Source: Mycoplasmatota bacterium
GTDB lineage: Bacteria > Bacillota_I > Bacilli_A > MAG-NZ
Assembly (NCBI GenBank): GCA_018394315.1
Contig: CP074575.1
Location: forward strand, 2,140,615 to 2,165,257
Direction: 5' to 3'
DNA: 24,643 bases
The stretch's first letter is position 1. Every line of letters begins with the position of its first letter. The position numbers and the translations under genes were made by a program. This document shows positions 887 to 22,446 of this stretch, one piece after another. Below the pieces are notes generated by a model that worked only from the letters and a program-made list of their open reading frames with translations, did not search any database and was not told the DNA's origin.

Positions 887-926
887 TGACGACGGCAACG
901 GGTTTTGAACCAATACCGATGGTGTT
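887..926 (-). repeat. Degenerate tRNA-Trp 3' fragment (att-like site, truncated copy)
   Basis: Minus strand AACACCATCGGTATTGGTTCAAAACCCGTTGCCGTCGTCA is colinear with a tRNA-Trp 3' half (T-loop GGTTCRA, acceptor strand) and with the copy at 21925. Confidence 0.7.
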
Positions 927-1015
927 TTTCACTGTTTAATTTTGACCACTTTATATGGTTCACTATAGCTGTTAAAAATAACAATTATTGGATTACAGTA
1001 TTATTTCAAAGAAAT

Positions 1016-2230
1016 TTACCTTGTTTTTCTTTCTTTCACTAATTGAATAAATCCAACAGGATTAACTAACTTAGTTCGATTCACATTATATGCGCTCTCT
1101 AGCATCATATCATTCATTTTAAAAACATCAATATTAGGATCTACTTGTAATGCCATTGCAGCTAAAGACACTTGAACTGGCGTTGTCCAACTGGTACCAC
1201 CCCTATTCCAATATGTATAATGATCATCCATAGAAGAATTACCAAGAGTATATGTAGTAGGGAAAGTGACTCTATCAGTACCATTAAAAATAGGTTCGTA
1301 ATTTTCTGGATTATCTCTATCTAGATATGGTTTAATTAATGCAACACCATTGTCTGCAAAAAACACTACCATCCCGTTATCATTTGCAGCTTCTACAGCT
1401 TCTCTAAAATCAGATATGTTTGACTCACTTGGATCTGGATTGTCAGAAAATCCAATTATTTTAATTTTTCCATCTTCGGGTAATGTTTCATTTATCTCAA
1501 TTACCTTATATATAGCTTCACTGTGACTCTTTTGATCACGGAGATAAGCTGGATGACCTATAAAATATAGGTTAACATCAGGTGCTGCTCCCACCTTATC
1601 ACCTACAATAAGATTAGCAACACTAATGCCGTGCATTGAAGTTCCATAATCTATTGCATTATTATAATCAATCCATTCATAATGGATATTTTTACCCTGA
1701 ATTGACTCGTGTGATTCTCTTAAATCTTGATCAATATACGCAATATTAACTCCCTTACCTGTTATTCCCTGCTCATGTAAAGAAGTAATACCTAAGACAG
1801 GACTTCTCCCCCATTCAAGTACTGTCTTTGGATCAAATTCCTCTGGCATATACTCACTGCTAGGAAACCTATCATTACTATGAATAGTAAAATTTAACAA
1901 GTTATCTAGTGAATCCCTAAAATCATAATCTGTAAAATCATTCCTAGCTTTATATCTAAACTCAGAAGGAACCAAATCATTCCCGTCTAAAGTAGGACCA
2001 TACTCTTCTTCAGTCACATCTGAATCCTCTATTAGGCTACTTTCTTCTTGTTCTTCATCAATTACAGTTTCTTCTGTTGTAGACTCTTCTTTTACAGTTT
2101 CTTCCTCAATATTTGATTTATCTGTTTCTTTTTCTAGTGTTTCAGGACTATTAATTTCACTTACTTGCTCGCATCCTGCAGTGTTAATAACCATTATAAC
2201 CAATATAATTAATATAATTAATTTTCTCAT
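1016..2230 (-). CDS. S8 (subtilase) family serine peptidase, lipoprotein
   Basis: Start moved to MRKL (ATG 2230, GGAGGG RBS). Lipobox-like TAGC, acidic linker, triad motifs AYIDQ / SMHG / GGTSWTTP. Confidence 0.88.
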   Translation of the reverse strand: MRKLIILIILVIMVINTAGCEQVSEINSPETLEKETDKSNIEEETVKEESTTEETVIDEEQEESSLIEDSDVTEEEYGPTLDGNDLVPSEFRYKARNDFTDYDFRDSLDNLLNFTIHSNDRFPSSEYMPEEFDPKTVLEWGRSPVLGITSLHEQGITGKGVNIAYIDQDLRESHESIQGKNIHYEWIDYNNAIDYGTSMHGISVANLIVGDKVGAAPDVNLYFIGHPAYLRDQKSHSEAIYKVIEINETLPEDGKIKIIGFSDNPDPSESNISDFREAVEAANDNGMVVFFADNGVALIKPYLDRDNPENYEPIFNGTDRVTFPTTYTLGNSSMDDHYTYWNRGGTSWTTPVQVSLAAMALQVDPNIDVFKMNDMMLESAYNVNRTKLVNPVGFIQLVKERKTR

Positions 2231-2365
2231 AATACCCTCCTTTGGTATCAAAATATTTGAATCATCTAATTATCTATAGAAATTATACTTAACATGAACT
2301 TTTTTTATAGATCATGATAAAAGTTTTTATTAATATTGGAGCATAATAGGGGGAACACCTAACTG

Positions 2366-4789
2366 TTATTTAAGTAGATTATGTAAGGGTGATTCATCAG
2401 TTACTGTTATATTGTTAACTTTATCTTTACTAGAAACTTCTAATAAGCCTAAGTAGTGGAATGCAAGCGAATTATTAAGATTGAATTGATAATTACCTTC
2501 AGAAAGATATCTATTAGCCAAACTATTTGAAATATATATTCTTTTTGCATTCATAAAACTTTCACTCCATGATAAATTATGAAGATAAATACCTTTCATA
2601 GTCCCATAGAATAATGATACTCCATTATTTCCCTTTAACTCATTCAAAGGTGCATAAACATCTATACCACTATTTGATGTGATATATGAAGAAGCAATTA
2701 CATTGATTGCTTTACCCTCACTAAGCATTAGTTGAGTAATGTTTTCGTCATTTAATTGAGCTGCACCCCAACAATCCCAAAGGAACAAATTAAAATAGTT
2801 ATTGTCTAAATATCTATTTACATTAATGTTATTTAAGAAAGACTTCCTAACTTCTATTTCTCCACTTGTGCCTATAAAATACGCATTATCAATGTTATCA
2901 AATTGACCGTGCGAATTAATAACAAAATTGACTATTCCTTGTTCATTCTCATACTCAATGTTCTCAGGCTCAAATCCACCTAGAACAGGATTAGATACCG
3001 GATAGTTACCTTTTAAATTCCCATACAACTTATAATCATCATCTGACAAAATTCCAAAATACTTATCTAGTCTTAAGATGAAAGTTCCTAAATCATCTAG
3101 GTGTTTACGACTAGCAAAGATCGGATTAGAAAAGCTAACTAGAGGTAATCTCTTATTATTTGTTAATTCCTTATATTCTAAGTATCTATTGTAATAGTCG
3201 CATATTTCTCCTTCACCTAATGGTAATCTCGCTAGATCCCATTCAGGATAAAAGTTTATATCGATTTCATTTTCTTCAAAGATAGTATACATACTTAAGT
3301 TCTTATCAATTTTACTAGCATCATTTTTAAAGTTAGAATAAAAATGGTCCGTGTAGATAGTACCATAATCATGAATACCATATTCATCCATATTTACCTT
3401 ATCATGAATCATAAACGTGGGTACTTCCTCCCTTGATCCAAATATTTGAATTCCTTTTAGAATCAAATTCGTATTGGTATTCACTTTCTCTAAATAAGAA
3501 AGGATGCCCTGCGCTGTGTCAAAGTTCTTGACATCTATGATTTTAACATCTGTTTCATCATTAATTAGGGATTTACTATAGTCATTAATTGCTTCCAAGT
3601 CCATGGTATTTGCAAAAAGACTATTATAAAGAAGAACATAGTAATACTGACTTTCCGCTTTATTATTCTTTACTAAATCTATAAATCCTTTTGGGTTTAT
3701 AAGTTTATTACCATCGATGTTATACGCTGATTTAAGCATTAACTCTTCGATACTAAATGGATCTAAGTTAGGATTAACTTGTAACGCAAGCGCAGCTAAA
3801 CCAACTTGTACAGGTGTTGTCCAACTTGTATCACCACTTTCCCAAAATGTATAGTGTCTATCAGAGTCGGTATTTCCTGTTACATATGTGGTCGGGAATG
3901 CTAATTTATCCGATTTATGATAACTATTGAATTCGTAGTTGCTAGGCTCATCCCTATCCAAGGATTCTTTTATAGTTACTATATCATTGTTTGCAAAGAA
4001 CACCACTATACCATTTTCATTGGCAACCTCTACAGCTTCCTCAAATGCATCCTTATTTAATTCACTATCATCAATATTATCAGAGAAACCTATTACTCTT
4101 ATTTTTTCATCCAAAGCTAAGGTATCATTTATTTCCAACACTTTATAAATTGCCTTTGCATGAGTCCATTGATCCATTAAAAATGTTGGGTGAGCAATAT
4201 AATAAAGATTAACCTCAGGTGCCGCTCCAAACAGTAGATCTGTAACAGCAATCCCATGCATTGAGTTCCATAAGTCGATTTCACTGTTGCTTATAGTTAC
4301 ATAATCATAATATAAGCTTTTATCATCTAAAGCTTCATGGCTAATTCTTAATGGTTGATCTATATATGCAACACTAACTCCTCTCCCAGTAACACCTTCA
4401 TTATGTAAATTTCTTATTCCTAAAACAGGCTGCCTTCCCCATTCAAGTAAAGTAGTACGATGTTCCTCATCATTTATTGGTAAATAAGAAAATCCTCCAT
4501 CCTCTGAAGTTGAATTAAATTGATCCAACTTTAAACCGACTTGTTCTGTTTCGGTAATCTCATCTTGCTGAGTTTTTTCTTTTACTTCATCATCTTCTTT
4601 ATTTGAACCATCAGAATCTTCTTGATTATTTTCATCTTTTGCAGTATCCAAGTCATCTTCATCGTCATAACTCTCATTATTTAAATCTTCTGTCATCTCC
4701 ACCACTTCCTCTTTATAATAAGAATCTTTACATCCTGTTAAGGTTAAGAAATTACTTAAAATAATAATGATGATTAGTAATTTTTTCAT
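2366..4789 (-). CDS. Lipoprotein with S8 peptidase domain plus C-terminal C25 (gingipain-like) peptidase domain
   Basis: Lipobox LTGC; S8 motifs AYIDQ, SMHG, GDTSWTTP. C-terminal half has IFGS..EVP, TDHFY, PEWDLARLP, INSHG, WDCWG, FHYLG in C25 order. Confidence 0.8.
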   Translation of the reverse strand: MKKLLIIIIILSNFLTLTGCKDSYYKEEVVEMTEDLNNESYDDEDDLDTAKDENNQEDSDGSNKEDDEVKEKTQQDEITETEQVGLKLDQFNSTSEDGGFSYLPINDEEHRTTLLEWGRQPVLGIRNLHNEGVTGRGVSVAYIDQPLRISHEALDDKSLYYDYVTISNSEIDLWNSMHGIAVTDLLFGAAPEVNLYYIAHPTFLMDQWTHAKAIYKVLEINDTLALDEKIRVIGFSDNIDDSELNKDAFEEAVEVANENGIVVFFANNDIVTIKESLDRDEPSNYEFNSYHKSDKLAFPTTYVTGNTDSDRHYTFWESGDTSWTTPVQVGLAALALQVNPNLDPFSIEELMLKSAYNIDGNKLINPKGFIDLVKNNKAESQYYYVLLYNSLFANTMDLEAINDYSKSLINDETDVKIIDVKNFDTAQGILSYLEKVNTNTNLILKGIQIFGSREEVPTFMIHDKVNMDEYGIHDYGTIYTDHFYSNFKNDASKIDKNLSMYTIFEENEIDINFYPEWDLARLPLGEGEICDYYNRYLEYKELTNNKRLPLVSFSNPIFASRKHLDDLGTFILRLDKYFGILSDDDYKLYGNLKGNYPVSNPVLGGFEPENIEYENEQGIVNFVINSHGQFDNIDNAYFIGTSGEIEVRKSFLNNINVNRYLDNNYFNLFLWDCWGAAQLNDENITQLMLSEGKAINVIASSYITSNSGIDVYAPLNELKGNNGVSLFYGTMKGIYLHNLSWSESFMNAKRIYISNSLANRYLSEGNYQFNLNNSLAFHYLGLLEVSSKDKVNNITVTDESPLHNLLK

Positions 4790-5777: not shown

Positions 5778-5781
5778 TTTT

Positions 5782-7543: not shown

Positions 7544-7874
7544 ATTTCTCTCCTTCCTAATCTTTATTCTCCTTATAATATGTTTTAATCTATTTTAAGA
7601 AATTATTAATGCCTACTTTTTTTATGATAAAATATCGTAAAAAATTCTTTGGAAATTAAATGACCAAACAAAGCATGTATAAAGACCTTAAAGGAAATTC
7701 TTACGGCTATGTTAAATGACAACAGATACGCTTCCACACGAAAAAAAAGCGAGAATTAACTTTTCCCCCTTTTAAGTTATGTTGTTACTAAAATAATAAT
7801 GCTAAGACCGAAATTCAAGAAATCCTTAAGTCAAGGTTAAAAACATATACGTAAGGTTATGAACTATCCTTTTA

Positions 7875-10142: not shown

Positions 10143-10171
10143 CGAAGTGTTGGAAATCAAAACAGCGCATT
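10143..10171 (-). repeat. att-like repeat copy
   Basis: + strand GTGTTG GAAATCAAAA CAGCGC ATT starting at 10147. Confidence 0.65.
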
Positions 10172-10175
10172 TTAT

Positions 10176-10204
10176 AAAAAACAAGCCTCAATTATGAGGC
10201 TTTT
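10176..10204. terminator. Bidirectional intrinsic terminator
   Basis: AAGCCTCA-ATTA-TGAGGCTT with A/T tails between convergent MFS and DUF4234 genes. Confidence 0.8.
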
Positions 10205-10309
10205 AACATAGAACTAAAGGACAATTGTAAAAAAACGCACAAACCATTACCTCAATGCTAGTTTTCAGAACAATTCAGTAAGATTATATAATTACTTTTT
10301 TTAAAAACA

Positions 10310-10621
10310 TCATAGCTTATTAGCTTGATTTTGCATTAAGAAAGGATTTAACCACGATAATGCGAAGAAACAGAAAATCAAATAGAGTATAGAATGGTCA
10401 TCAGCACCTTGCTTTGCAAGTCGTTGCCCCGCCACATATTGCCAATAAATGCTATAGATACCAAATGTGAAAATCAACATAAGAAAGTGAGCAAACCCTC
10501 CGAATCCCTCTCCAGTTTGTTCCTTTAACTCAACTTGAAACTTAATATTCCAGTAAATCAAATAGATTCCAAATGTTACAATTATAAGTAATATCATCAG
10601 TCCAATTGAACGCTTTGTCAT
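10310..10621 (-). CDS. DUF4234-like small membrane protein
   Basis: Duplicated TFGIYxIYW motif; strong RBS GGGGGAG. Confidence 0.8.
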   Translation of the reverse strand: MTKRSIGLMILLIIVTFGIYLIYWNIKFQVELKEQTGEGFGGFAHFLMLIFTFGIYSIYWQYVAGQRLAKQGADDHSILYLIFCFFALSWLNPFLMQNQANKL

Positions 10622-10638
10622 AACACTCCCCCTTTTCT

Positions 10639-10667
10639 ATTATAACTAGGTATATCATAGTATGCAA
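10639..10667 (-). promoter_or_regulatory. SigA-type promoter of the DUF4234 gene
   Basis: TTGCAT-N17-TATAAT on the minus strand, between the att-like repeat and the RBS. Confidence 0.7.
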
Positions 10668-10691
10668 CGATGATTAAAATAATACATACTA

Positions 10692-10719
10692 GGAGTGCTG
10701 GATACCGAAACAACGCATA
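10692..10719 (-). repeat. att-like repeat copy
   Basis: + strand GTGCTG GATACCGAAA CAACGC ATA starting at 10695. Confidence 0.75.
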
Positions 10720-11446
10720 ATCACATTTTGAGATACAACTTTCTAAATCATAGACACCCATTAGATATCTAATTTATTATTAATCTCCCCTAAAAAACCT
10801 TATAGATGGAATGAAATATATTCCAGTAAAACACACCTAAAAAATATTATCATAAGAGTAAATCTAGTAAATTTAATCATCATTGCGCATTTTCTTAATC
10901 ACACTTCATAGTACCTACCCCATAATCACACAGAATCAAATAAAAATTACTGGTTTTAGATAATCCCCAGTTACAAAATCCAGCTACTGAGTTAGCATCT
11001 TTAGGTTTTCCTAAGCGGTTTCGATGGTGGATCTGGGATGCAACCTTAAACAATCACATAAAAAATTTCTTTAACTTGTACAATTTGAAAATATATTGTT
11101 TAAAGGCATTGTTGATGCTCTCTTTCTTAACAGAATTATTTAGTTTACTACAGAAGAACTGTTTTTTTGTATGTACAAGACTTAATCGTATATAATTTAT
11201 TTCTTGTAAATATTCATTTAATTTATTATGATTATGAAGATATTTTCTTAAGTATGATTTGTAGTGCCTATATTTTTTCTTTTTGCGGTTCGAAAGTTAG
11301 AGGAATATTTACTATTTTATCATCTGATTTTAGTAGATCGGCCGAAAATAAAAAGTTCACTACATATTGTAATCAACTTTTTTATATCTAGTTAAGTAAT
11401 TCTTAACTACAAACTGAAACTATTTTGTTAGAAGGGTAGAAATTAC

Positions 11447-11632
11447 TTAACATTTAGTGGAAGCAAGACCTATAATAACCAACAGTATAAATAATACTAA
11501 TACTATTGTGTAGCTATTATCAGAACCACAGCAACCATAACCGTATCCGCCACCGTAACCATATCCGCCACCGTAACCGTATCCGCCACTGGAACTGTAT
11601 CCGCCACCGTAACCATATCCACCGTAACTCAT
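11447..11632 (-). CDS. YjcZ family sporulation protein
   Basis: GYGYGG repeats followed by IVLVLFILLVIIG; AAAGGGG RBS; upstream CATACTCT box. Confidence 0.88.
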   Translation of the reverse strand: MSYGGYGYGGGYSSSGGYGYGGGYGYGGGYGYGCCGSDNSYTIVLVLFILLVIIGLASTKC

Positions 11633-11943
11633 ATAATTCCCCCTTTCTAATACTAGAGTATGTTCATATGAAACTTTGAGATATTACAAACAACCAATTT
11701 CTATATCTAAAGCTTCTTAAGCATAGCATTTACCCCCCCTTAAAAATTACTTTACCGATTATAATATTCGTTAGTCCATTTTTATTATAAATAATCTTTG
11801 GGACACCAATAAGAAAACCAATAATAATATGATTTTATTTTTATTTATGATACATATCATAAAGAAATCACGTTTAATATGTGATAATGATTTTACACTT
11901 ACAGTATGTTATAATAATTTAATTGAATTAAGTAGGTGAATAA

Positions 11944-12585
11944 ATGAAAAAGAAAGAAATAAAAAGACCAATTCATAGGGCTGAGTTGGAGATTTATTAT
12001 GATTTACTTACTACTAATTTAGATATGGACCGAATTGAATACAAGAGAATTTATGATGGCTTAATTGCTGAAGTAGAAGGTTATAGGTTAGTTCTAGATA
12101 CTTGTGAAGTTGAAAAATGTATCTTTAGAGATGGTGAGTTTGTTCGTTCTGAATTTATTGATATAGTGTTTAAAAATTGCGAATTAACGAACTGTACTTT
12201 CATAGATTGTACCTTCGTTCGTGTCGAATTTATTAATTGTAAACTAGTTGGTACACACTTTGTAACAACTCATATGAGTGATGTTTTCTTTAACGAAGTG
12301 TATGCTGATTATCTAGATATATCGGAATGTAAATTAAAGAACGTAAAGATTGTTGATTCATCTTTAATGATGGCATCGATATTTAATAATAAAGTAGATA
12401 ATTTTATACTGGAAAGTGTCAATTTAAAGAGCGCGACTTTTTACGAGACTTCACTTAAAGGAGTCGATTTGTCTACATCGGATATTTATGGAATAAATAT
12501 TGAGCTTAAGAGTATTAAAGGAGCCACTATAGCATCGTGGCAAGCAGTAGATGTATGTAATTTACTTGGAGTATATTTAAAATGA
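11944..12585 (+). CDS. Pentapeptide repeat protein
   Basis: Continuous x(D/N/T)(F/L)xx periodicity; C-terminal LKGVDLS...IKGATI. Confidence 0.9.
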   Translation: MKKKEIKRPIHRAELEIYYDLLTTNLDMDRIEYKRIYDGLIAEVEGYRLVLDTCEVEKCIFRDGEFVRSEFIDIVFKNCELTNCTFIDCTFVRVEFINCKLVGTHFVTTHMSDVFFNEVYADYLDISECKLKNVKIVDSSLMMASIFNNKVDNFILESVNLKSATFYETSLKGVDLSTSDIYGINIELKSIKGATIASWQAVDVCNLLGVYLK

Positions 12586-12693
12586 TGAAAGAATTAGTTT
12601 GATAAGTAATCCTGATATTCTTTTGAATTTACCAAGTGGTATTAGTGAAGTGGTTTGAACTACAAATTTTAGAGAATTTATACTTAAATAAAT

Positions 12694-12716
12694 AAAGCCT
12701 CATCAAAGAGGCTTTT
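12694..12716. terminator. Intrinsic terminator
   Basis: AAAGCCTC-ATCAAA-GAGGCTTTT. Confidence 0.75.
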
Positions 12717-12734
12717 GTTGTTTTAATAGTGAAT

Positions 12735-12759
12735 CGATGGTGGAGACCGAAAGGACACT
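12735..12759 (-). repeat. att-like repeat copy
   Basis: + strand ATGGTG GAGACCGAAA GGACAC starting at 12737. Confidence 0.7.
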
Positions 12760-12825
12760 CTCTATGATTATCGAACTGTAGATTTTCTTCTTATCTTTTT
12801 ATACCAATAATCTCTTACTAAGCAC

Positions 12826-13659
12826 TTAAGCCGGAATCTTGAATTCACATGCAACACCAACTTGGCACAATCCGCAGCTTGATGAAGCCACTTCATAATG
12901 TTTCTCGGTATATGGCTTGATTACATTTCGTTGATACGCTCTACACTTAAGTTTGTCGTGCCCTTGCTCGGATATGGCTCCTACTGGACATCTTCTTATA
13001 CAATCATTACATGTACCATCGGAATAAAAAAGGCAGTATTCATGGTGAGAAACATATTTTCTTACACTGTAAGTTAATTCTACTTCCGAAATAATAGAAC
13101 CGCACCGATGAGCTTTTCCAACACTTGTTATTAATCCATCACATAGTCCAAAAGTACCTAATCCACATGCAAATGCAGTATGTCTCTCTGACCATGAGGA
13201 AGCATATCCATATTTATCAGATTCATAATAACTCCAATTTTCACTTAAGGATGGGCACATTGTTTTTATGTTTCTTCTATTCAATTCGTTAACTAAGAAT
13301 TCCATTAACATATCAATAAACTTTTGACCATATATTCTATTATTTGACCATAATCTACTAGCATAGTGCTCTTCATTTAGATTTGCAATCCTAGTCTCTA
13401 TTCTTTGGGGAAAGATAAAACTAACAACACTTAGTTTATCAGTATTAGAATCTCCGAATTCATGCCTAAAAGCTTCTTTTGGATTCCAGTAAAATCCCCC
13501 TATATCGTTCTTGAAAAAATCAAAAATTTTATCACTTCCACTGGAAAATCCAATTAATGGCATTTCATACGGTGTTTCTGATTCAGCATAGTTAATATAA
13601 AATTCTTCTATTAGTTCATTCAGTAAATTAGTATACTCCCTTTTTACATCACCAGGCAT
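12826..13659 (-). CDS. Epoxyqueuosine reductase (QueG)-like 4Fe-4S protein
   Basis: WSERH..FACGLGTFG, CxxCxxRCPVGAI and CGLCQVGVAC motifs. Start moved to ATG 13659 (GGGGGAG RBS). Substrate not assignable. Confidence 0.8.
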   Translation of the reverse strand: MPGDVKREYTNLLNELIEEFYINYAESETPYEMPLIGFSSGSDKIFDFFKNDIGGFYWNPKEAFRHEFGDSNTDKLSVVSFIFPQRIETRIANLNEEHYASRLWSNNRIYGQKFIDMLMEFLVNELNRRNIKTMCPSLSENWSYYESDKYGYASSWSERHTAFACGLGTFGLCDGLITSVGKAHRCGSIISEVELTYSVRKYVSHHEYCLFYSDGTCNDCIRRCPVGAISEQGHDKLKCRAYQRNVIKPYTEKHYEVASSSCGLCQVGVACEFKIPA

Positions 13660-13812
13660 TTGGCTCCCCCCATTCATGCTAGAAACTATTTTCAAGCAAT
13701 ACAAACTATCCAACTGTTTCGGATGTTTACATAATATAATTCAACTTAGATTAATACTCTACACTTACAATAAAAAAAGAATGATTTTACTCTAAAAATG
13801 TATGTTTATGCA

Positions 13813-13842
13813 ACCGGTGTTAGAAACAGAAAACGACACATT
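13813..13842 (-). repeat. att-like repeat copy
   Basis: + strand GTGTTA GAAACAGAAAA CGACAC ATT starting at 13817. Confidence 0.65.
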
Positions 13843-13902
13843 ATTTAACTGAAAATAATCTAAGTTTCATCCTCACTATTTTTCAACTACTCAAAAAGGT
13901 TA

Positions 13903-14460
13903 TTATTCAATAATTTTGTACTCAATGTCTTCCCATTCTTCTCTCAAAATACCATACTCATATTCATCCCACCAGATTGGGTCGCCATTATTATTTCTTT
14001 TAATAAAATAACTTTTTTTTAAGTTACCTTCTCGTCTCATTAAAATCCTTTCTAAAAGTTTCCATGACTTAATATTATCAGGATTACATCTTGCGGAAAC
14101 ACGATGAATTTGAAGGTTATCAAAACCATACTGTATAATAGCTTTGCATGCTTCTGTAGCGTAGCCTTTACCATAATATTTAGGATTAAATATATACCCT
14201 AAATTCCAACTCAAAAATTTTTTTGGCATTGCTTGATTGAAGTATACATGACCAATCATTTTACCTTTAGTTTTAAGTTCAACAGCCCAAAAGGCATTAC
14301 TTTGTGATAAAGACATAGCCGCTTTCTTACAACCTTCATCAGTTGAATCCCAATCCGACTCAAACTTAAGTACTTCTTCTTCAATTATATATTCTTGTAA
14401 ATCTTTCCAATCTTCTTCTTTGAAGTTTCTCACTAATAATCTTTCGGTTTCTATGATCAA
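13903..14460 (-). CDS. GNAT family N-acetyltransferase (RimJ/RimL type)
   Basis: IETERL, GYIFNPKYYGKGYATEA, NIKSWKLLER; TTG start with AAGGGGAG RBS. Confidence 0.92.
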   Translation of the reverse strand: MIIETERLLVRNFKEEDWKDLQEYIIEEEVLKFESDWDSTDEGCKKAAMSLSQSNAFWAVELKTKGKMIGHVYFNQAMPKKFLSWNLGYIFNPKYYGKGYATEACKAIIQYGFDNLQIHRVSARCNPDNIKSWKLLERILMRREGNLKKSYFIKRNNNGDPIWWDEYEYGILREEWEDIEYKIIE

Positions 14461-14520
14461 TTGAATCTCCCCTTTTTATTTTATCTATATCAATTGTATA
14501 CTTATTTTGCACTTATATCA

Positions 14521-14551
14521 AACTGTGTTGGAGTCTGAAATAACACATATT
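14521..14551 (-). repeat. att-like repeat copy
   Basis: + strand GTGTTG GAGTCTGAAA TAACAC ATA starting at 14525. Confidence 0.75.
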
Positions 14552-14599
14552 CTTTTAAAAATAACTTTGTCTTTTTTTTAGAGCGTAATGTAATTAAAC

Positions 14600-14900
14600 A
14601 ATATCATTTATCTTATTAACTGATTGTAGCTTAATTTATTATTATTTGTAATTCCACTAAATATTGAAATACCTTTTCCGATTAATTTGGGTATAGTTAC
14701 AAAATACTGATCAATTAAGTTTAGTTCCCCAATTGGTTTGATGAACTTTCCTCCACCAAACAACCATATATTTTTAAACCTTGTACTCTCAATTCTCTTA
14801 CAAATCCCGCAACATCACTACTATAAAATTGTAGTACACTCCCTTTGTATTACTAAATCCCTTTTTTCGATAAGACATTATAAATTCCTTTTTGAATCAT
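14600..14900 (-). pseudogene. Frameshifted C-terminal fragment of a dihydrofolate reductase/RibD-C family gene
   Basis: Minus-strand frames read QFYSSDVAGFVRELRVQG / KNIWLFGGGKFIKPIGELNLIDQYFVTIPKLIGKGISIF. Boundaries approximate; no 5' half seen. Confidence 0.75.
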
Positions 14901-14917
14901 TCTTATACTTAAGCATT

Positions 14918-14972
14918 TAAAAACACCCCAATCTTTAACTTGGTTTCTTGTCCAAGATTGGGGTGTAGTTTA
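14918..14972. mobile_element. MITE-like hairpin related to 811-867; probably terminates the sigma/anti-sigma operon
   Basis: 13-bp IR ACACCCCAATCTT / AAGATTGGGGTGT; shares internal ACTTGGTT and TCCAAG and the GGGGTGYAGTTYA end with 811-867. Confidence 0.6.
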
Positions 14973-14988
14973 TTAGTTGATTCTTTAT

Positions 14989-17487
14989 TTATGACTGATT
15001 TTTAATCTCATCTATCTCGCCATTTACTTCTTCAATTTCCTTCTCATAGTGGCGATTTAATTCATTTATCTTGTCATTGTATTCTTCAATCTCTTCATCT
15101 GATAATTCACTTCTTTTTGCTTCTAACTCTTCTTCTAGTTCTGCTAGTTTTATATCATATTCCAATTCTAGATTCACTAACTCTTCCTCTAACTTTTGGA
15201 TTTCCTCTTGTTTTTCAGCTTCATCTTCTTGTGCTTCTTCATCTAGGTCTGAAATAAAATCAAGGATATCTTTTTTTAGATCTTCATAATCTTCTTCCAG
15301 ATCATCAATTTGATCTTTTACTTCGTCGATCGCATCTTCATGTAATGATGTATCTTCTAACATTATTTCTAGATCAGCTATATTTTCATTAAACTGAGCA
15401 GTAATCTCATCCAATAATAAATTAGCCCCTTCAACTGAAATCAATTGTTCAATTTCATGTTCGTACTGTTCAGTTATTGCTTCAAATTGATTTTTTCTTG
15501 CTCCTAGCTCCGATTCACTTTCCTCTTCTTCTAAGTCTGAAATAAAATCAAGAATTTCTTCTTCTAGGTCTTCAAAATCGTCTTGTAGATCTTCAATTTG
15601 ATCTTTGATTTCGTCGATCGCATCTTCATTTGATGGTGTACCTTCTAACATTACTTCTAGATTAGCTATATTTTCATTAAACTTGCCAGTAATCTCATCC
15701 AATAACAAATTAGCTCCTTCAACTGAAATCAATTGTTCAATTTCATATTTATACTGTTCAGTTATTGCTTCAAATTGATTTTTTCTTGCTTCTAGTTCTG
15801 CTTTACTTTCTTCTTCATCTATTTCTGAAATCAATTCAGTGATGTCTTCTTCTAAATCCTTATAATCATCTTGTAGGTCTTCAATTTGATCATTGATTTC
15901 GTCGATCGTATCTTCATTTAATGAAGTATCTTCTAACATTATTTCTAGACTAGCTATATTATCATTAAACTCAACAGTAATTTCTTCTAACAATGAATTA
16001 GCTTCCTCAACTGAAGTCAATTGTTTTATTTCATACTTATAACGGTTTTTTATCGCTTCTAGCTGAATTTTATTAGCTTTTAATTCTGCATCTTCAACAT
16101 CTTCTATAGCATCGTTCATGGTAGAAGCAATCTTTTCTTCAGCTTCAGTTTTCAACTCATTAATTTTTTGATCAAACTCAACTGTTAGTTCAGCAATTTC
16201 TGCCTCAAGCTCTGCAATTTCTTCTTCAGTCATATTTTCTCTATTTGTTAAAAGTTCAGTGTTAAGTTCTTCTAGTTCTTGTTCATATTCATCAGTTAAT
16301 TTTGATATATCTTCGTACAACTCTTCAGCGACATCTTCAGCTTCATCTTCTGCTTCTCTTACCTTTTCTTTTGCTTCTTCGATTTTTTCCTTAGCTTCTT
16401 TGGCTTTTTCTTTTGCTTTTTCTTTTGCTTCTTCGTCCTCTTCAATTGATTCATAATAATCTTCTAACATGTCCTCAAGATCATCAACATCCATTGCTTG
16501 TAATTCTTCTACACTTAACAACCCTAAACCACTTAATGTTTCAATATACTTTTGTCTATCTGTTTCTTCAACTGCAAGTTCCGCAGTTTCCTTAACTTGA
16601 TTTTCCTTAATTTCGTAATATTCCTTTAGAACATCATGTAAATCTTTTGTCTCAGTAACAGCAATTTCTTCGATTGTTAGTAGTTCCTGTTCTAAGATTT
16701 CATTAACATACTTTTCTCTTTTTTTCAATTGTCCCGGGGTATCATCATTATCTTCAGATACGATTTCTTGAATTACAACCCCGTAAGATTCTTCTAGTAA
16801 ATCTTTGATATCATTAACCTTCATATCAGCAAGTTCATCTACATCATCTAATGAATAATCACCAGTAATAAGTAATGCTTCAATCAGTGTAGCTTTTGCT
16901 TGTGAAATCACAGATGATTCAGTATCTATAATTTCTTTATATTTATTTACTACAGTTTCAAATTGTTTTCCTAATTTCTCTGCTTCTTCATCTACAGTTG
17001 AAGTAATCTCTTGCTCTAACTGGTTATTTAACTCATCATCTTCTGATTGGACACTGAATAATATCGTGTCATCCTCAATTAAGAAATCCTGATCTTCAGC
17101 AACTTGAATAATATTCGCCACCAAATCATCTAAATTTGTTAATGTAACATCAACATCTAATAATAATGTCTCGGCATCAGCATTCAGTGCTTCAACACTA
17201 ATTACTTCATTATTTTCATCTAAGTTAATTAAGACACCTGGGTTGATATCAAGTGTTACTACAGAATTAAGTGCTCTCACCGGTACTATAGTACCATCAC
17301 CCTGGTTCAATCCAAAACCAAACACCAATGCAATCATAAGCATTGCAAATGCGCCTGTACGCTTCCAATTCCACAGAAGTCTAAAACTTTTGTTGTTATT
17401 AAAGTTTAAATGACTCTTCACATCTTTAGCTTCTAATTGTGAAGAAATGTTTATATTGTTATGTATTTCTTTTTTTAGCCTTTTCAT
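14989..17487 (-). CDS. Putative anti-sigma factor (RsgI-like domain) with long acidic coiled-coil tail
   Basis: Single TM helix, then VTLDINPGV.I.LD....V..VEALNADA (RsgI-like); 2 bp downstream of the ECF sigma gene. Confidence 0.75.
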   Translation of the reverse strand: MKRLKKEIHNNINISSQLEAKDVKSHLNFNNNKSFRLLWNWKRTGAFAMLMIALVFGFGLNQGDGTIVPVRALNSVVTLDINPGVLINLDENNEVISVEALNADAETLLLDVDVTLTNLDDLVANIIQVAEDQDFLIEDDTILFSVQSEDDELNNQLEQEITSTVDEEAEKLGKQFETVVNKYKEIIDTESSVISQAKATLIEALLITGDYSLDDVDELADMKVNDIKDLLEESYGVVIQEIVSEDNDDTPGQLKKREKYVNEILEQELLTIEEIAVTETKDLHDVLKEYYEIKENQVKETAELAVEETDRQKYIETLSGLGLLSVEELQAMDVDDLEDMLEDYYESIEEDEEAKEKAKEKAKEAKEKIEEAKEKVREAEDEAEDVAEELYEDISKLTDEYEQELEELNTELLTNRENMTEEEIAELEAEIAELTVEFDQKINELKTEAEEKIASTMNDAIEDVEDAELKANKIQLEAIKNRYKYEIKQLTSVEEANSLLEEITVEFNDNIASLEIMLEDTSLNEDTIDEINDQIEDLQDDYKDLEEDITELISEIDEEESKAELEARKNQFEAITEQYKYEIEQLISVEGANLLLDEITGKFNENIANLEVMLEGTPSNEDAIDEIKDQIEDLQDDFEDLEEEILDFISDLEEEESESELGARKNQFEAITEQYEHEIEQLISVEGANLLLDEITAQFNENIADLEIMLEDTSLHEDAIDEVKDQIDDLEEDYEDLKKDILDFISDLDEEAQEDEAEKQEEIQKLEEELVNLELEYDIKLAELEEELEAKRSELSDEEIEEYNDKINELNRHYEKEIEEVNGEIDEIKNQS
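15230..16090 (-). repeat. Three tandem 288-bp (96-aa) intragenic repeats
   Basis: TCAATTTGATC...TTCGTCGATCG block recurs near 15296, 15584 and 15872 (period 288). Boundaries approximate. Confidence 0.85.
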
Positions 17488-17489
17488 AT

Positions 17490-18017
17490 CTATACCTCCA
17501 ATTTTTCTTTTAATTTTTTCATTGCTTCGTTATACTTCCAACTAATTGTACCAATAGGCTTGTCCAAACCTTTTGATATCTGTTTATGAGTATAATTTCC
17601 AAGAACATGCATCAGTACAATTTGAAACTCATCATTATTCAGTACACTTTTCATGTCTTTTAATAATAGTAACTCTCTTTCGCTGGAACAATCACTGGAC
17701 ATAAAATCAAATCTATTCGATTCAACATAACTCATTTTGCTTTCTTTTCTTATGAAATTAATGGTTTTGTTTCTTGCGATGGTAAGCATCCATGATAGGA
17801 AATTATTACTATTACAAGAATCTATTTTTTCATATATTGTGATATAAGTATCTTGAAGTAAATCATCTGCAGCTGCTCGATTCTTCACCATACTATAAAT
17901 AAAATAGAAAAGATAGTCCCTTGTTAAGTAAAATAATTCATCAAATGCTCTTTCACTTTTTTTCTTTAACTTATACTTAATGATTCCTAACTGTCTTTTG
18001 CTCATTCTTTGGGCCAT
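17490..18017 (-). CDS. ECF (sigma-70 group 4) RNA polymerase sigma factor
   Basis: Region 2 ADDLLQDTY...FLSWMLTIARN; region 4 THKQIS..LDKPIGTISW. Confidence 0.92.
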   Translation of the reverse strand: MAQRMSKRQLGIIKYKLKKKSERAFDELFYLTRDYLFYFIYSMVKNRAAADDLLQDTYITIYEKIDSCNSNNFLSWMLTIARNKTINFIRKESKMSYVESNRFDFMSSDCSSERELLLLKDMKSVLNNDEFQIVLMHVLGNYTHKQISKGLDKPIGTISWKYNEAMKKLKEKLEV

Positions 18018-18527
18018 GGCATGTTCTCCTCTTCATTTAATAGACACTTGTAATTGAGATTTTATTGGATTTTACGAAATAAATTGTATAACTTAATATA
18101 CTATAAATACTCTTACTACAGTTTTGTATCATCTAATAATAACTGATAATATTCACTTAGCCTATACTAATAGGTAAAAAAAAGTACTCGACTTGCATAG
18201 TACGTGTACTTTTTAATACTTTATTTTTTCCCACCTAAATGACTTGTTACTTTTTAGTAATATTATTTAGCAAAACTCCTGCTGCAACATTTGGCTAATA
18301 AAGACCCTTTCATTACAATTAAAGAGAAATAAATTCTCACTAGCAATATTCCTTACACGAGTTTCAAATTAAAAAGGAAATGTGATTTCTAAATTTTGAT
18401 ATCATACAAGAACTACATAGTTATAATGAAACGAGAACCTCTATCTAATAATGCTCTCTTACAAGAATTATGCAGGTGAAATGGAATTTATGGTATAATC
18501 AAGAAAACTATAAATAGAGGTAATCGC

Positions 18528-19088
18528 ATGATTATAAGAAAATTAAATGAGATAGAGTATTCGTTAGCAGTAGAATTAAGGATTAATTTTTGGGATGAGG
18601 TAGTAGCAGGAACAGTACCTAATCCTATGGTAAAGAACAAAGAATTAAGATCAATGATAGAATGGGTTAATACGGCTGACGAGCACAATGATATCAGGCT
18701 ATTATATGGTGCTTTTGATAATGAGAATTTTATGGGATTTGCAGGAGCAAGTATTGCAGAAGAAAGTGACTCACAAAATGGAATCGAATTGAATTATCTA
18801 TTTGTTAAGGAAGAATATAGAGGAAAAGGGGTATCGTTAAAGTTACTGATAAAATTATTAAGTGAGTTTATGACAGATAAGTTTACTGAACTTGTTGTTT
18901 ACAACTTCAATTGTTCACCTTCAAATAAATATTATTGTAAACTTGGAGGTAAAGTAAAAAAACAAGCAGCTCAAATTAATGGTAAACTACTAGTTGATAT
19001 TTTTAGTTTTGATATAGGCAACCTAAACGAGAGACTCAAAAAAATGGTCATTGATAGATATACCTCAAAACCCTATGAAAACGAGTAA
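18528..19088 (+). CDS. GNAT family N-acetyltransferase
   Basis: LFVKEEYRGKGV motif A; GAGGT RBS. Confidence 0.88.
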   Translation: MIIRKLNEIEYSLAVELRINFWDEVVAGTVPNPMVKNKELRSMIEWVNTADEHNDIRLLYGAFDNENFMGFAGASIAEESDSQNGIELNYLFVKEEYRGKGVSLKLLIKLLSEFMTDKFTELVVYNFNCSPSNKYYCKLGGKVKKQAAQINGKLLVDIFSFDIGNLNERLKKMVIDRYTSKPYENE

Positions 19089-19113
19089 GTACATCGGACA
19101 ACTTAATAGAAAT

Positions 19114-19145
19114 AAAAAAACAGAGTCCAAAAATGGCTCTATTTT
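19114..19145. terminator. Bidirectional terminator
   Basis: AAAAAAACAGAGTCCA-AAAA-TGGCTCTATTTT between the GNAT gene and the car relic. Confidence 0.65.
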
Positions 19146-19158
19146 AATATTTTATCAC

Positions 19159-19319
19159 TTATTCCACTATATTAAAAACTTTTGTATTTTTAATTTCAAT
19201 AATTGCATTCATAACGTCGGTCAAGGCTTGTACAGTATTTTTCCAACACTTTCCTTCAAATATCCAAATGCATTTCCTTCAAATATTACTCCATTTTCTA
19301 ATACTAAATGTGCTTTCAT
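19159..19319 (-). pseudogene. carA: carA (pyrAA) 5' fragment joined out of frame to a probable carB 3' end
   Basis: ATG 19319: MKAHLVLENGVIFEGNAFGYLKESVG matches the CarA N-terminus, stop at 19221. Another frame reads TVQALTDVMNAIIEIKNTKVFNIVE* (stop 19159), CarB C-terminus-like. Confidence 0.8.
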
Positions 19320-19460
19320 CTTCATCTCACTTTCTAGTCTCACAGTACCAATTTAAAGTTTAGAATTTACCTAATACTCAAAAGTTTTTCCATCAATAAA
19401 ATATCACTATGCTCTTTTCGTCATAAATTAAAAATTTCTATGTTTTAAGGTTACTATCAT

Positions 19461-19492
19461 CCCCTTTTTAGCCTCTCTGGACTGAAAAAAAT
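19461..19492 (-). promoter_or_regulatory. PyrR binding loop
   Basis: Minus strand TTTTTTCAGTCCAGAGAGGCTAAAAAGGGG contains the canonical AGUCCAGAGAGGCU. Confidence 0.85.
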
Positions 19493-19507
19493 ATCTCGCT
19501 TTTTCCG

Positions 19508-19543
19508 AAAAAAAAGCCCTCCTCAAAAGAACTGAGAAAGGCT
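19508..19543 (-). terminator. Attenuator terminator of the pyr leader
   Basis: AGCCTTTCTCA-GTTCTTT-TGAGGAGGGCT followed by a T-run, downstream of the first PyrR loop. Confidence 0.75.
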
Positions 19544-19607
19544 GAATAAACGAATTTTTATGTGTTATTTATGTAATTGTATTCTATAAACATAAATATC
19601 ACAAGAC

Positions 19608-19635
19608 CTTCCTAGTCTCTCGTACTAGATTAAAG
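19608..19635 (-). promoter_or_regulatory. PyrR binding loop (leader-proximal)
   Basis: Minus strand CTTTAATCTAGTACGAGAGACTAGGAAG fits CUUUAA..AGUCCNGNGAGGCU..AAG; TTAACA-N17-TATCAT promoter just upstream (19650-19678). Confidence 0.8.
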
Positions 19636-19973
19636 ATACATATCGAACTATGATATATCATTATATATATATTGTTAACAGAACTTTAAAATAGAATAAA
19701 AAAGGACCGTCAGAATTTTGTTTAGATAATTTTCCTGATTACTCTCATTCCAAGAACCATCGATTGGAATTTCACGTGAATTTTCATTAATGTGTTTAAA
19801 TCTAAGGAGCCATCTATTAAACACACTTCAAAAAAAACATAATTTTAGCCATGATTATATTGTTTGATTATTGCTTGGTTTTTCACCCTCTATATGAAGG
19901 AAATCCTATTATTGTGATGAGAAAAATTGTAAAATAATGTATAATGTAAATAGACTTACACTAGGAGGATAAT

Positions 19974-20672
19974 ATGAAAGGACATGAGAGAATAATAGCG
20001 TACTTTATACCTTACAAATTTAAGAGAAACATAATTATTACAGTATTAGCGCTTTTATTAGCCATTATTACAGCAAGAAATGAGAAATTAGGAATCGTCG
20101 TAGTTGGATTATTAATCTTTGCTTTCTATAAAATTATAGTTATTCGAAAGAATAAAAAGAAAATAGTATTCGATCGTGAAATTGATGAGTATATCAAAAG
20201 AGAAGGAGATATTATATTTAATGAAGGATTAAATAAACTAGGTATCAACATTAGTGATGTGAATTTTATTGATCCTATAATTATTAATGAACATTTGTTT
20301 GAATCTACCATTACACCAATGTACAGTATAAGAGGACGTGACGGAAAATACAGATCTTCTAATCAAAGAACAACTGTATTTTATTTAAGTAGTAATCAAG
20401 TATATGTATACCGTAAACTACACTCTCTAGTTGGTTCAGAACATAGTTCTTCAACTCACGAATACTTCTATACTGATATAGTATCTGTTTCTACTAATAC
20501 TGATAAAAACAAAAACATGAATGAGATTGATTACAAATATGAAGTTGAAATTTTTAAAATGACAATGACTGATGGAAATCAAGTCGAATGTAGAATTTCT
20601 GATATTCAAGCACTAGAATCTCAAGTTAAAGCACTGAGACAAGTCGTAAGAGATCAGAAGCAAGTTGCATAA
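19974..20672 (+). CDS. Hypothetical membrane-anchored protein (two N-terminal TM helices)
   Basis: AGGAGG RBS, upstream TATAAT, 232-aa ORF, terminator follows. Confidence 0.8.
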   Translation: MKGHERIIAYFIPYKFKRNIIITVLALLLAIITARNEKLGIVVVGLLIFAFYKIIVIRKNKKKIVFDREIDEYIKREGDIIFNEGLNKLGINISDVNFIDPIIINEHLFESTITPMYSIRGRDGKYRSSNQRTTVFYLSSNQVYVYRKLHSLVGSEHSSSTHEYFYTDIVSVSTNTDKNKNMNEIDYKYEVEIFKMTMTDGNQVECRISDIQALESQVKALRQVVRDQKQVA

Positions 20673-20676
20673 AATA

Positions 20677-20724
20677 AAAAGAGGCTGTCTCGAAGTAATG
20701 CTTAGAGGTTAAGACGCCTCTTTT
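20677..20724. terminator. Terminator-like hairpin, possibly an IS-end-derived scar
   Basis: AAAAGAGGCTGTCT...AGACGCCTCTTTT with a long loop. Confidence 0.55.
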
Positions 20725-20934
20725 GTTATATAAATACCAAAAATTCTAAATGAAAAAATTACATATAACCTTACTATTTGCTATATACTTCCTCTAAGTG
20801 CTTCAGAATTAAATCGTCTTTTATTAACTTGTTCACCTCAATTATTATGAATAATATCCAAAATTTTAGTTTCTATACTTTAAGACTTCTTCTAAAATAT
20901 GCTGATAGTAAAAAACCAGTTTGTGCCTCCTCAA

Positions 20935-20958
20935 TAAAGCCATCATTGAATGGCTTTA
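20935..20958. terminator. Hairpin after the small membrane gene
   Basis: TAAAGCCA-N8-TGGCTTTA. Confidence 0.55.
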
Positions 20959-20975
20959 CTAGTGTAATAAAATTG

Positions 20976-21170
20976 CTAAAGTACTGCAGAAATAAATAGA
21001 TAATCTAGAAAAAATACTGTTATGAAGGATAATGCCACTAGAAGATATTTAATACATTTATTTTCAATATAGAGTATTCTCTTAATGATATTAGAAAGTA
21101 GCCACCCAAATAGTCCACAGAATACTGCTACAAGTGATATTGATAAAGTTACATTTGACAAAAAGTCCAT
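20976..21170 (-). CDS. Small two-TM hypothetical protein
   Basis: Strong RBS (AAGGAGGA), two hydrophobic helices, hairpin downstream. Confidence 0.65.
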   Translation of the reverse strand: MDFLSNVTLSISLVAVFCGLFGWLLSNIIKRILYIENKCIKYLLVALSFITVFFLDYLFISAVL

Positions 21171-21255
21171 ATGTAAATCCTCCTTCTCCTTTAGTTCATT
21201 CTAAGTATATCATCAACTAATTATAAATAGAATAGGTCATCTTATCGTTTATATA

Positions 21256-21287
21256 CTATCGGTTTTGGAGTACGAGAATTCACATAT
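21256..21287 (-). repeat. att-like repeat copy
   Basis: + strand CGGTTTTGGAG TACGAGA ATTCACAT; minus strand CTCCAAAACCG is the tRNA-Trp anticodon loop and 3' stem. Confidence 0.6.
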
Positions 21288-21310
21288 TGGCATAAATAGC
21301 AAAAATATAA

Positions 21311-21718
21311 CTATGCTGCTATAGAAACTTTTTCTTTCCACATTCTGTATTCCTCTAAATCATTTTTAACTGTTTTATAAACGTATGTCAAAATAGCACT
21401 ATCATCGAGACGCCCTATAACTGGGATAGTATCCGGAATAATGTCAAATGGGCTTAATGCATATATCAATGAAGCTACTATAAGTACAACTTTGATCACT
21501 GGTATTTCGCAATAGTCTCCTTTTGAATAATCCTTAACAAGCGAGATAAACGACTTTATAGTTTCCATAAGTTCTTTGAATGCATCCTTATTAGATACCA
21601 TTTTGTCAACTGCTTTCAATAATGTACCTAGTTCATATTCATTGTTCAGCAATTTTTTTGTTTTTTCTTTTAATTAATCATTCTTAATAAACTTTTTAAC
21701 GCTAACATTTTGGCTCGT
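21311..21718 (-). pseudogene. YkvA/DUF1232 family gene with damaged 5' end
   Basis: YALSPFDIIPDTIPVIGRLDD motif. AGGAGG RBS points to ACG at 21718 with in-frame TAA at 21676; the TTG start at 21652 lacks an RBS. Confidence 0.75.
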
Positions 21719-21796
21719 CTTGTTCCTCCTAGTTTTCAATGTCTGTACATATTATAGCATGCCACTATTTGCAACTCAGCTAGGTAAAAAGACAGT

Positions 21797-21828
21797 ATGT
21801 CGTCGTTGGAGACCGAAACACTGATATT
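21797..21828 (-). repeat. att-like repeat copy
   Basis: + strand TCGTTG GAGACCGAAA CACTGA TATT starting at 21803. Confidence 0.75.
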
Positions 21829-21924
21829 TTATATATCGACTAAAAATTTTCTCCAATACTATTACTAATTGCATTTATAATTTCGATTTTTGATAAATCC
21901 GACAAAGGCTCTTTTATAATTATA

Positions 21925-21982
21925 TGGCAGTGGCAACAGAATTTAAACCCTTGGCGACGTGTCGGAGACTGAAACAACTATT
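21925..21982 (-). repeat. Full-length att-like copy: foreign arm plus degenerate tRNA-Trp 3' half ending CCA
   Basis: Minus strand AATAGTTGTTT-CAGTCTCCGACACGTCGCCAAGGGTTTAAATTCTGTTGCCACTGCCA; no D-arm or 5' acceptor strand. Confidence 0.8.
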
Positions 21983-22438: not shown

Positions 22439-22446
22439 CGGAGGAA

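Follow-up and report, generated by a model that had tools for sequence, protein, structure and literature searches.

Integrons are the textbook system for the capture and reshuffling of single genes. The Xer-dependent dif modules of Acinetobacter are plasmid-borne, have sites in alternating orientation and use the host recombinases XerC and XerD. In streptococci, accretions of ICEs (integrative and conjugative elements) and IMEs (integrative and mobilizable elements) include cis-mobilizable elements (CIMEs), which are att-flanked segments that encode no recombination functions and are believed to depend for movement on the integrase of an element beside them. A genome has few CIMEs, which are multi-kb in size and derived from decayed ICEs or IMEs. 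Firmicutes, Tenericutes and Actinobacteria were without complete integrons in a large survey (Cury 2016, PMC4889954), and no description of arrays such as those reported below was found for this bacterial group in the open-access literature searched. The locus analysed here is a stretch of 24,643 nucleotides (the window) from a Mycoplasmatota bacterium (CP074575.1, genome G000), the final 24.6 kb of a single 2,165,257-bp contig, 31% GC. It holds most of an island downstream of a tRNA-Trp gene in which short tRNA-derived sites, all in one orientation, separate small and mostly single-gene units, hereafter called cassettes.

The first-pass annotation of the window had listed eight intergenic copies of the site and proposed that they derive from a tRNA-Trp gene lying beyond position 24643. 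All eight were present letter for letter on the plus strand (Table 1), and none overlapped an open reading frame (ORF) of at least 50 amino acids. ARAGORN detected no tRNA gene within the window. The only tRNA-Trp(CCA) gene of the genome was located by the same program at c7950-8024, about 8 kb beyond the window end provided that the single contig is circular, as was assumed. On the plus strand the sequence across this gene reads ...GAACCCGTACCGACGGTGTTGGAGACCGGCGTGCTAC..., so that the motif GTGTTGGAGACCG is the reverse complement of the anticodon arm, with stem CGGT, loop GTTGGAG and stem ACCG. The repeats copy this arm, and some still carry the 3' half of the gene, which bears out the proposed derivation. 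Displaced 3'-half copies are found at genome 676-733, window 21924-21971 and window 887-926, the last of which had been reported as a truncated copy and does align with the tRNA-Trp 3' half. A weak copy reported near 7798 has only AGACCGAAAT in common with the site, was missed by every scan and was treated as chance.

The island extends for about 32 kb from window 887, past the window end and over genome 1-8024, to tRNA-Trp. Read directly from the DNA, its anatomy is that of an anticodon-centred tRNA island: the intact tRNA stands at one end, the opposite end has a displaced, directly oriented 3' fragment, identity ends in the anticodon region, and a tyrosine integrase gene inside the island adjoins the regenerated tRNA. 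Integrases are present in only two of the at least 11 units between window 887 and tRNA-Trp. The annotation's claim of small cassettes without an integrase therefore describes most units, but not the two elements that carry their own, one intact and one truncated. The remaining genes are, as had been noted, functionally unrelated by Pfam and include S8 peptidases, a CAAX protease, TetR, MFS, a sigma/anti-sigma pair, and pentapeptide and Zn-ribbon proteins.

The flanking recombinase predicted in the first-pass annotation was found directly beside tRNA-Trp. This gene, Int1 (genome 6978-7883), lies directly upstream of tRNA-Trp with 67 bp between them and encodes a 301-aa Xer-like tyrosine recombinase (PF00589, E=4e-35). 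Upstream of Int1, Pfam identified a Rep gene (PF02407), a helix-turn-helix (HTH) regulator and a Multi_ubiq/DUF6791-ThiF/DUF6527 operon, and the resulting 7.3 kb element lies between tRNA-Trp and the copy at genome 676-746. That copy (site 721) consists of the exact tRNA 3' half followed by GAAACGACGTATAT, and its half is accompanied by GAAACGACGT. The direct repeat pair flanking the element is 96% identical over 99 bp. Of the operon and the CRESS-type Viral_Rep (PF02407) gene (genome 1682-3456 and 6002-7012), the latter overlaps the start of Int1, and the operon, in which the DUF6791-ThiF protein is E1-like, resembles a ubiquitin-like defence module. In a plasmid collection, the sole match of the Rep was the RepA of a small Bifidobacterium plasmid (30% identity), and no Int1 relative above 34% identity was found. 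A DJ-1/PfpI gene between sites at genome 721 and 1512 forms a further small unit. The two contig ends meet within Int2, which is no longer than 214 codons and is without the N-terminal ~85-110 residues present in Int1; together with HTH and DUF4386 genes (window 22447-24040) it makes up a decayed element.

The NCBIfam integron-integrase model TIGR02249 scored 77 bits for Int1 and 73 bits for Int2 against a cut-off of 265, with the match split in two stretches, and the best NCBIfam model for Int1 was XerA at 147 bits, below its 220-bit cut-off. By these profile scores Int1 is not an integron integrase, and both enzymes look like short Xer-type recombinases. Int1 has no arm-binding domain, which together with its short length fits action on a short, simple site. 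A public protein search returned one Int1 relative at 87% identity, and all others were at or below 49%. The former is a 293-aa protein annotated 'site-specific integrase [Mycoplasmatota bacterium zrk1]' on a 2,356,343-bp contig. A contig search for Int1-related loci returned a single weak, irrelevant locus.

The annotation had expected the motif to cluster at the tRNA-Trp locus. A weight matrix was built from seven of the window sites and was circular for those seven; it also recovered strong new copies, among them genome 721, 390307 and 1430857. An independent profile was built only from 55 sites of G004, a relative of another genus with a complete 2.45 Mb genome. On the 2.17 Mb of G000 this profile gave 23 matches at E<=10 versus one in the reversed genome, and 17 versus none at E<=1, and it recovered six of the eight window sites. 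Nine of the 23 matches fell in the ~32 kb island, and about 12 more copies were found at no fewer than six other places and on both strands. These additional copies are at 390307/392274, 672028/678457, 979531, 1109832 and 1473531, and in a three-site mini-array at 1430857/1432590/1433370 around a 293-aa repeat protein and a 132-aa protein. No tRNA gene was present within tens of kb of the mini-array, and no PF00589 integrase match nearby. Cumulative GC skew placed the origin near 0.52 Mb and the terminus near 1.56 Mb, with the contig start not at the origin, and the antisense genes adjacent to the sites run with replication at all sites but 1473531. The window sites are decayed relative to those at 721, 390307 and 1430857, and because they are degenerate the window array may be largely fossil, with much of it now inactive.

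A pattern scan of the class (401 genomes) found the site in four genomes, all of one eight-genome family (G000, G004, G001 and G002); by the same scan it was absent from G005 and from three family genomes of ~0.8-0.9 Mb. The single copy in G002 is the distal junction of that genome's own tRNA-Trp island. In G004 a 19-mer at <=3 mismatches gave 68 matches versus none for the reversed pattern, and the profile gave 80 matches in the 156 kb fetched, so that this one genome has at least 80 sites over roughly 110 kb. The G004 arrays are at about 124-147, 833-860, 895-906, 1514-1553, 1619-1628 and 1730-1733 kb, and none of them adjoins its tRNA-Trp gene at 2.138 Mb. The 55 strongest G004 sites (E<=1e-3), those used for the profile, have the consensus aaCGGTGTTGGAGACCGAAACGACrcAT. 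Conservation is >=84% at 24 of 26 positions; two purine/pyrimidine positions vary and the flanks are unconserved.

Intervals between sites in G004 and G001 (n=77) have a median length of 626 bp. ORFs of at least 50 aa were counted as sense or antisense relative to the site. Among the 59 intervals of <=1600 bp, 40 contained one antisense ORF, five one sense ORF, nine none and five several, and all intervals together held 118 antisense and 29 sense ORFs. In the 40 cassettes with a single antisense ORF, median distances are 80 bp from the upstream site to the start codon and 43 bp from the stop codon to the downstream site. No Pfam family was assigned to 22 of the 30 ORFs tested from this set, and the families assigned were miscellaneous (WG repeat, DUF4234, RDD, DUF4932 twice, DinB and HAD). 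The arrays thus consist of cassettes that share one orientation, mostly hold a single ORF and each end in a site, which is the layout of an integron array, and the window has the same layout. The upstream gaps of median 80 bp hold -10-like and ribosome-binding-site-like motifs, and one promoter match of 10/12 abuts the site at 14525; promoter-like matches numbered 32 against 29.3 expected from shuffles, with no enrichment.

All-against-all BLAST of the arrays revealed the same cassettes in different arrays with unrelated neighbours. A 138-aa cassette is common to arrays L020 and L026 at 96.6% identity, as is a cassette designated Y at 97%, whereas cassette X is present in three arrays at 89-92%. 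A two-gene tandem duplication is 99.7% identical. Two window cassettes, DUF4234 and DUF1232, are flanked by sites in G004 as well, the former at 84% nucleotide identity. An apparent case of A-B versus A-X-B arrangement was rejected, the two 233-aa cassette ORFs concerned being unrelated.

Nine junction sets were aligned, anchored on TTGGAG. Where the shared cassette stands right of the site, left flanks are unrelated until 1-3 nt before TTGGAG and the sequence is common from TTGGAG on, rare right-arm variants such as ACTACG and TACGAG included. Where it stands left of the site, identity runs through TTGGAG and ends 0-12 nt after it, in L027 immediately after. The DUF1232 cassette has the unusual GGAG-TACGAG right arm both in G000 (site 21262) and in G004, with different left arms. 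Gene-content breakpoints between genomes and between arrays accordingly fall inside the site, as the annotation had anticipated, and mosaicism between arrays and between genera with its switch in a 6-7 bp core is a direct observation. Tyrosine recombinases have an overlap region of 6-8 bp. Since similarity switches at TTGGAG, the exchange point probably maps to TTGGAG(A), anticodon-loop nucleotides with the 4-bp anticodon-stem inverted repeat on both sides, and this is the geometry expected of such an overlap region. The tRNA att sites classed as anticodon-centred in the Islander paper agree with it as well.

DNA folding of eight strands of four sites gave minimum free energies of 0 to -3.2 kcal/mol (z -0.8 to +1.3 versus shuffles). 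With no single-strand fold the sites are not attC-like, in agreement with the annotation. The arrays are like integrons in their co-oriented arrangement of mostly single-ORF units of mostly unassigned function, in the recombination site after each ORF, in the tyrosine recombinase of the Xer-like group at the anchored end, and in the sharing and reordering of cassettes between arrays. They differ in that the recombinase is not IntI, in that the conserved ~26-bp site appears to be of duplex type where attC is a structured hairpin of variable sequence, in that the anchor is a tRNA gene and not attI, in that cassettes may carry their own promoter and terminator where integrons have a common Pc promoter at the platform, and in that the host is from a group reported to be without complete integrons. 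With tRNA islands (Islander class A; tycheposons) the locus shares the intact tRNA at one end, displaced 3' fragments as direct repeats, an integrase beside the regenerated tRNA, and newer elements that push older ones outward. Unlike those islands, most units here are of 0.3-1.1 kb with a single gene, no integrase and only a ~26-bp core instead of the tRNA 3' half, and arrays reach tens of units, also away from the tRNA. Next to the tRNA the island amounts to two ordinary tRNA-targeting elements in tandem, as in Islander and tycheposons; what distinguishes it is the series of standardised single-gene units that have a shrunken att and no integrase, with ~80 sites per genome in G004. Here there are dozens of standardised-looking single-gene units, which sets the arrays apart from CIMEs. 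Xer-dependent dif modules are likewise small accessory-gene modules with short (~28 bp), simple tyrosine-recombinase sites that are shuffled between replicons, but the sites here are direct within any one array, chromosomal and tRNA-derived. Functionally the arrays are closest to the integron or to the dif modules, though defining features of both fail.

We consider it probable that the island combines tandem integrative elements with integrase-less cassettes that would be exchanged by conservative recombination at a mini-att site. The ~32 kb island downstream of the single tRNA-Trp would have been laid down by repeated conservative site-specific recombination with the anticodon loop as core. 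Nearest to the tRNA stands the 7.3 kb plasmid-like Int1 element, then the decayed Int2 element, and further out the small units of 0.5-1.1 kb, each with one gene opposite to the site strand, no integrase, and at its bounds a mini-att site composed of anticodon stem, TTGGAG(A), anticodon stem and then AAACGACAC. Such units would be cassettes: a circle with one site would recombine with any resident site, strands would be exchanged within TTGGAG(A), and the catalyst would be an Int1-type recombinase of a co-resident or transient element. We infer capture by a recombinase acting in trans, as well as the enzyme concerned, circle formation and present activity in G000. More tentatively, and with something less than even confidence, we propose that this is an independently evolved integron-like gene-capture system of a wall-less, Firmicute-related lineage. 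In it the Xer-like recombinase of a Rep episome would use the tRNA-Trp anticodon arm as a docking site, and promoter-bearing single-gene cassettes with a universal 26-bp site, a miniature of that arm, would be inserted, excised and reshuffled among arrays by strand exchange in the 6-7 bp anticodon loop.

Several observations weigh against cassette exchange at the mini-att site. The window sites are degenerate, and the G004-only profile misses two of the eight (10147 and 21262). The join of the window end to genome position 1 was assumed from the single-contig assembly, with an ORF running through the junction as the sole added support. Of five window segments with counterparts in G004, three (the pentapeptide, 232-aa and Gly-rich genes) were without detected flanking sites there, and breakpoints could likewise come to lie in the repeat through short homologous recombination between copies of ~30 bp. 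In G004, G001 and G002 the search for an intact orthologue of Int1 or Int2 found none, the best full-length matches being <=37% identical; beside tRNA-Trp in G004 there are only Int2-like fragments of 98-108 aa, one of them 89% identical to the Int2 C-terminus. Because G004, the genome richest in sites, is without an intact Int1 orthologue, the acting enzyme may come from an Int1-type episome that is present only transiently, or may be a different resident recombinase or XerC/XerD. No serine recombinase was found in G000, and the Y1 transposase PF01797 was present in G000 only and in none of the four other family genomes searched, G004 included, so tyrosine recombinases alone among the recombinase classes were detected in both G000 and G004. 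Two ~305-aa Xer-type genes are present in all eight family genomes.

The decay of the window sites would also suit a history of fossil accretion, in which each unit entered tRNA-Trp as a complete integrase-bearing element and later deletions left a gene and a junction, nothing having moved in trans and the arrays being inert scars. Int2 is truncated, the junctions at 21959 and 887 retain 3'-half remnants, and tandem tRNA integration with scattered partial tRNAs and broken integrases has already been described in a tycheposon preprint and the Islander paper. We nevertheless regard this history as unlikely. Most small units have no 3'-half tRNA on the left flank and could not have restored the tRNA on entry; arrays are found at loci without tRNA-Trp in both G000 and G004; the same cassette recurs in several arrays with different neighbours and switch points in the 6-bp core; and a peak of unit sizes at 0.3-0.8 kb, with exactly one ORF each, is not what random decay predicts. 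Among 3919 islands, the Islander paper counted only four tandem arrays with three or more members. A further alternative retains the cassettes and changes the enzyme, the work being done by housekeeping XerC/XerD or another resident tyrosine recombinase, as in integrative mobile elements exploiting Xer (IMEX) and the Acinetobacter dif modules. The family-wide pair of Xer-type genes, the many well-conserved sites of G004 in spite of its missing Int1, and the best scores of Int1 itself against Xer models all lean this way. The sites are, however, direct repeats of tRNA-derived sequence linked to an element-borne integrase at the tRNA, and G005 and the three small genomes have Xer genes and no cassette sites, which leaves this alternative somewhat less probable again.

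Least probable, and in our estimate very unlikely, is that the site is an intergenic repeat similar to repetitive extragenic palindromic (REP) sequences or miniature inverted-repeat transposable elements (MITEs), or a protein-binding or terminator signal, spread by transposition, with the mosaic arising from homologous recombination between repeats. Copies do occur at several loci and on both strands, always just 3' of a gene at the median of 43 bp past the stop codon, and their orientation tracks gene and replication direction. Against this, neither strand forms a stable hairpin in the folding reported above, G004 with its ~80 sites has no Y1/RAYT transposase, no Rfam family matches, the sequence is continuous with true tRNA-Trp att junctions, and the sites are strongly clustered and not dispersed. 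Rfam was searched with the window at the gathering threshold and with two G004 arrays at E<=1, and it returned no family for the sites, only an unrelated T-box and a chance snoRNA match. The T-box leader (RF00230, 141 bits; G004 L026 626-827) lies just outside one array. A metagenome scan with a 21-nt core gave one match, on a 68% GC contig without an array, which was regarded as chance.

Table 1. Sites, cassettes and other units of the tRNA-Trp island in the window (window positions).
Position	Strand	Feature	Basis
887..926	+	Decayed tRNA-Trp 3' half (reverse complement), distal island end; ends GGTGTT, rest of site absent	Alignment with tRNA-Trp gene and four other 3'-half junctions
10147..10168	+	Degenerate cassette site GTGTTGGAAATCAAAACAGCGC	Absent from G004-only profile matches
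10169..10694	-	Single-gene cassette: DUF4234 (10310-10621), terminator 10183-10202	Pfam; terminator prediction
10695..10716	+	Cassette site	Scans including G004-only profile
10717..12736	.	Composite interval: glycine-rich YjcZ-like gene (11447-11632, minus), pentapeptide-repeat gene (11944-12585, plus)	Pfam
12737..12758	+	Cassette site, just past bidirectional terminator 12694-12715	G004-only profile
12759..13816	-	Single-gene cassette: 295-aa protein (12826-13713), weak 4Fe-4S match below Pfam cut-off	ORF, Pfam
13817..13839	+	Cassette site, one extra base	G004-only profile
13840..14524	-	Single-gene cassette: GNAT acetyltransferase (13903-14460); -35/-10 match 14521-14493 abutting next site	Pfam, promoter scan
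14525..14546	+	Cassette site	G004-only profile
14547..21261	.	6.7 kb multi-gene block: RsgI-like anti-sigma factor, sigma factor, GNAT, 232-aa protein, small ORFs; no sites detected	Pfam, site scan
21262..21283	+	Cassette site, GGAGTACGAG subtype	Same subtype precedes same cassette in G004
21284..21802	-	Single-gene cassette: DUF1232 (21311-21652)	Pfam; 78% nucleotide identity to G004 cassette, similarity site-bounded
21803..21824	+	Cassette site	G004-only profile, junction comparison
21914..21980	+	Decayed tRNA-Trp 3' half then site = left junction of Int2 element	Alignment
21981..24643	+	Decayed integrative element: membrane protein, Cro/C1-type HTH, DUF4386, start of truncated Int2 (ATG 24614, on to genome 600)	Pfam, ORF across contig ends

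Adjacent sites in the window are 548 bp (10147/10695), 1080 bp (12737/13817), 708 bp (13817/14525), 541 bp (21262/21803) and 156 bp (21803/21959) apart. The first four of these intervals hold one minus-strand gene each (DUF4234, the 295-aa protein with the weak Fe-S match, GNAT and DUF1232), and the fifth is empty. The left flanks of the small window units are not tRNA-like, so these units could not have regenerated the tRNA on direct entry. Possible decayed site remnants near 11017 and 11335 were read by eye in the composite interval, and the 232-aa gene of the 6.7 kb block is present in G004 without flanking sites. In the same block, the anti-sigma factor (14989-17487) has 832 aa, and its acidic C-terminal region is built from internal ~290-bp repeats (82-84% identity). 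The sigma factor gene (17490-18017) adjoins that of the anti-sigma factor. The site-free distal part of the island contains two neighbouring paralogous genes for S8 subtilase-like lipoproteins (1016-2251 and 2366-4789) with 66% nucleotide identity over ~700 bp. Window 11345-11699 and genome 1431033-1431375 share a 355-bp segment with the glycine/tyrosine-rich YjcZ-like 61-aa gene at 90% identity between island and mini-array, and the segment is also present in G004 and G001 at ~80% identity. Elsewhere in G000, tRNA-Arg(TCT) has a tandem island of its own (genome 1458944, 1470366 and 1479789) with two displaced 3' fragments, an 18-nt probe being exact at all three positions, and with a 320-aa integrase at 1478923-1479648. 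The tRNA-Arg island also encloses one cassette-type site (1473531); this was ruled out as the att of the island, which has its own tRNA-Arg 3' repeats.

Further features were observed in the G004 arrays. Their orientation divides by position, with the minus strand for every array below 0.91 Mb and the plus strand for every array above 1.51 Mb. A second class of site, class B, has a CGGTGTTGGAGACCG core, then a ~34-nt insert (ATGGACTAYATTTA...) and then CGACACACGGATTTTCAATCC with a small hairpin. Class B sites are located at L026 6723-6810 and 12484-12570, L020 (reverse strand) near original 19270-19352, and L023 2874-2960; they precede multi-gene intervals of 1.3-7.6 kb, and the same left-hand cassette is followed by the usual site (class A) in one array and by class B in another. 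Pfam analysis of the larger G004 intervals beside class B sites detected no recombinase, only an IS240-type DDE fragment. A ~1.15 kb repeat, with copies 93-95% identical, ends ...TTGGTCAAAAAAATCATTATTAGCAAAACGG and runs directly into the site. Copies are at L020 (flipped) 700-1843 and 10206-11349 and at L026 9572-10711, with parts in L021 and L022, and each holds a 103-aa ORF on the site's strand with no Pfam family. A larger element inserting at the sites may terminate in this repeat.

The end product in this Mycoplasmatota-type family resembles that of an integron, with long co-oriented arrays of mostly orphan single-gene cassettes common to arrays and genera, and it is made from different parts: a simple recombinase of the Xer-like type and a short duplex site derived from a tRNA. 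With the predicted exchange region (TTGGAG) and a candidate enzyme (Int1) both named, the system is open to direct testing, and if the proposal is correct the compact recombinase and 26-bp site would form a pair of interest as a candidate tool. Cassette-array gene capture would then have evolved more than once, and this family would make visible how an ordinary tRNA-targeting element can turn into a cassette system, with attB becoming the platform and a shrunken att the cassette site.

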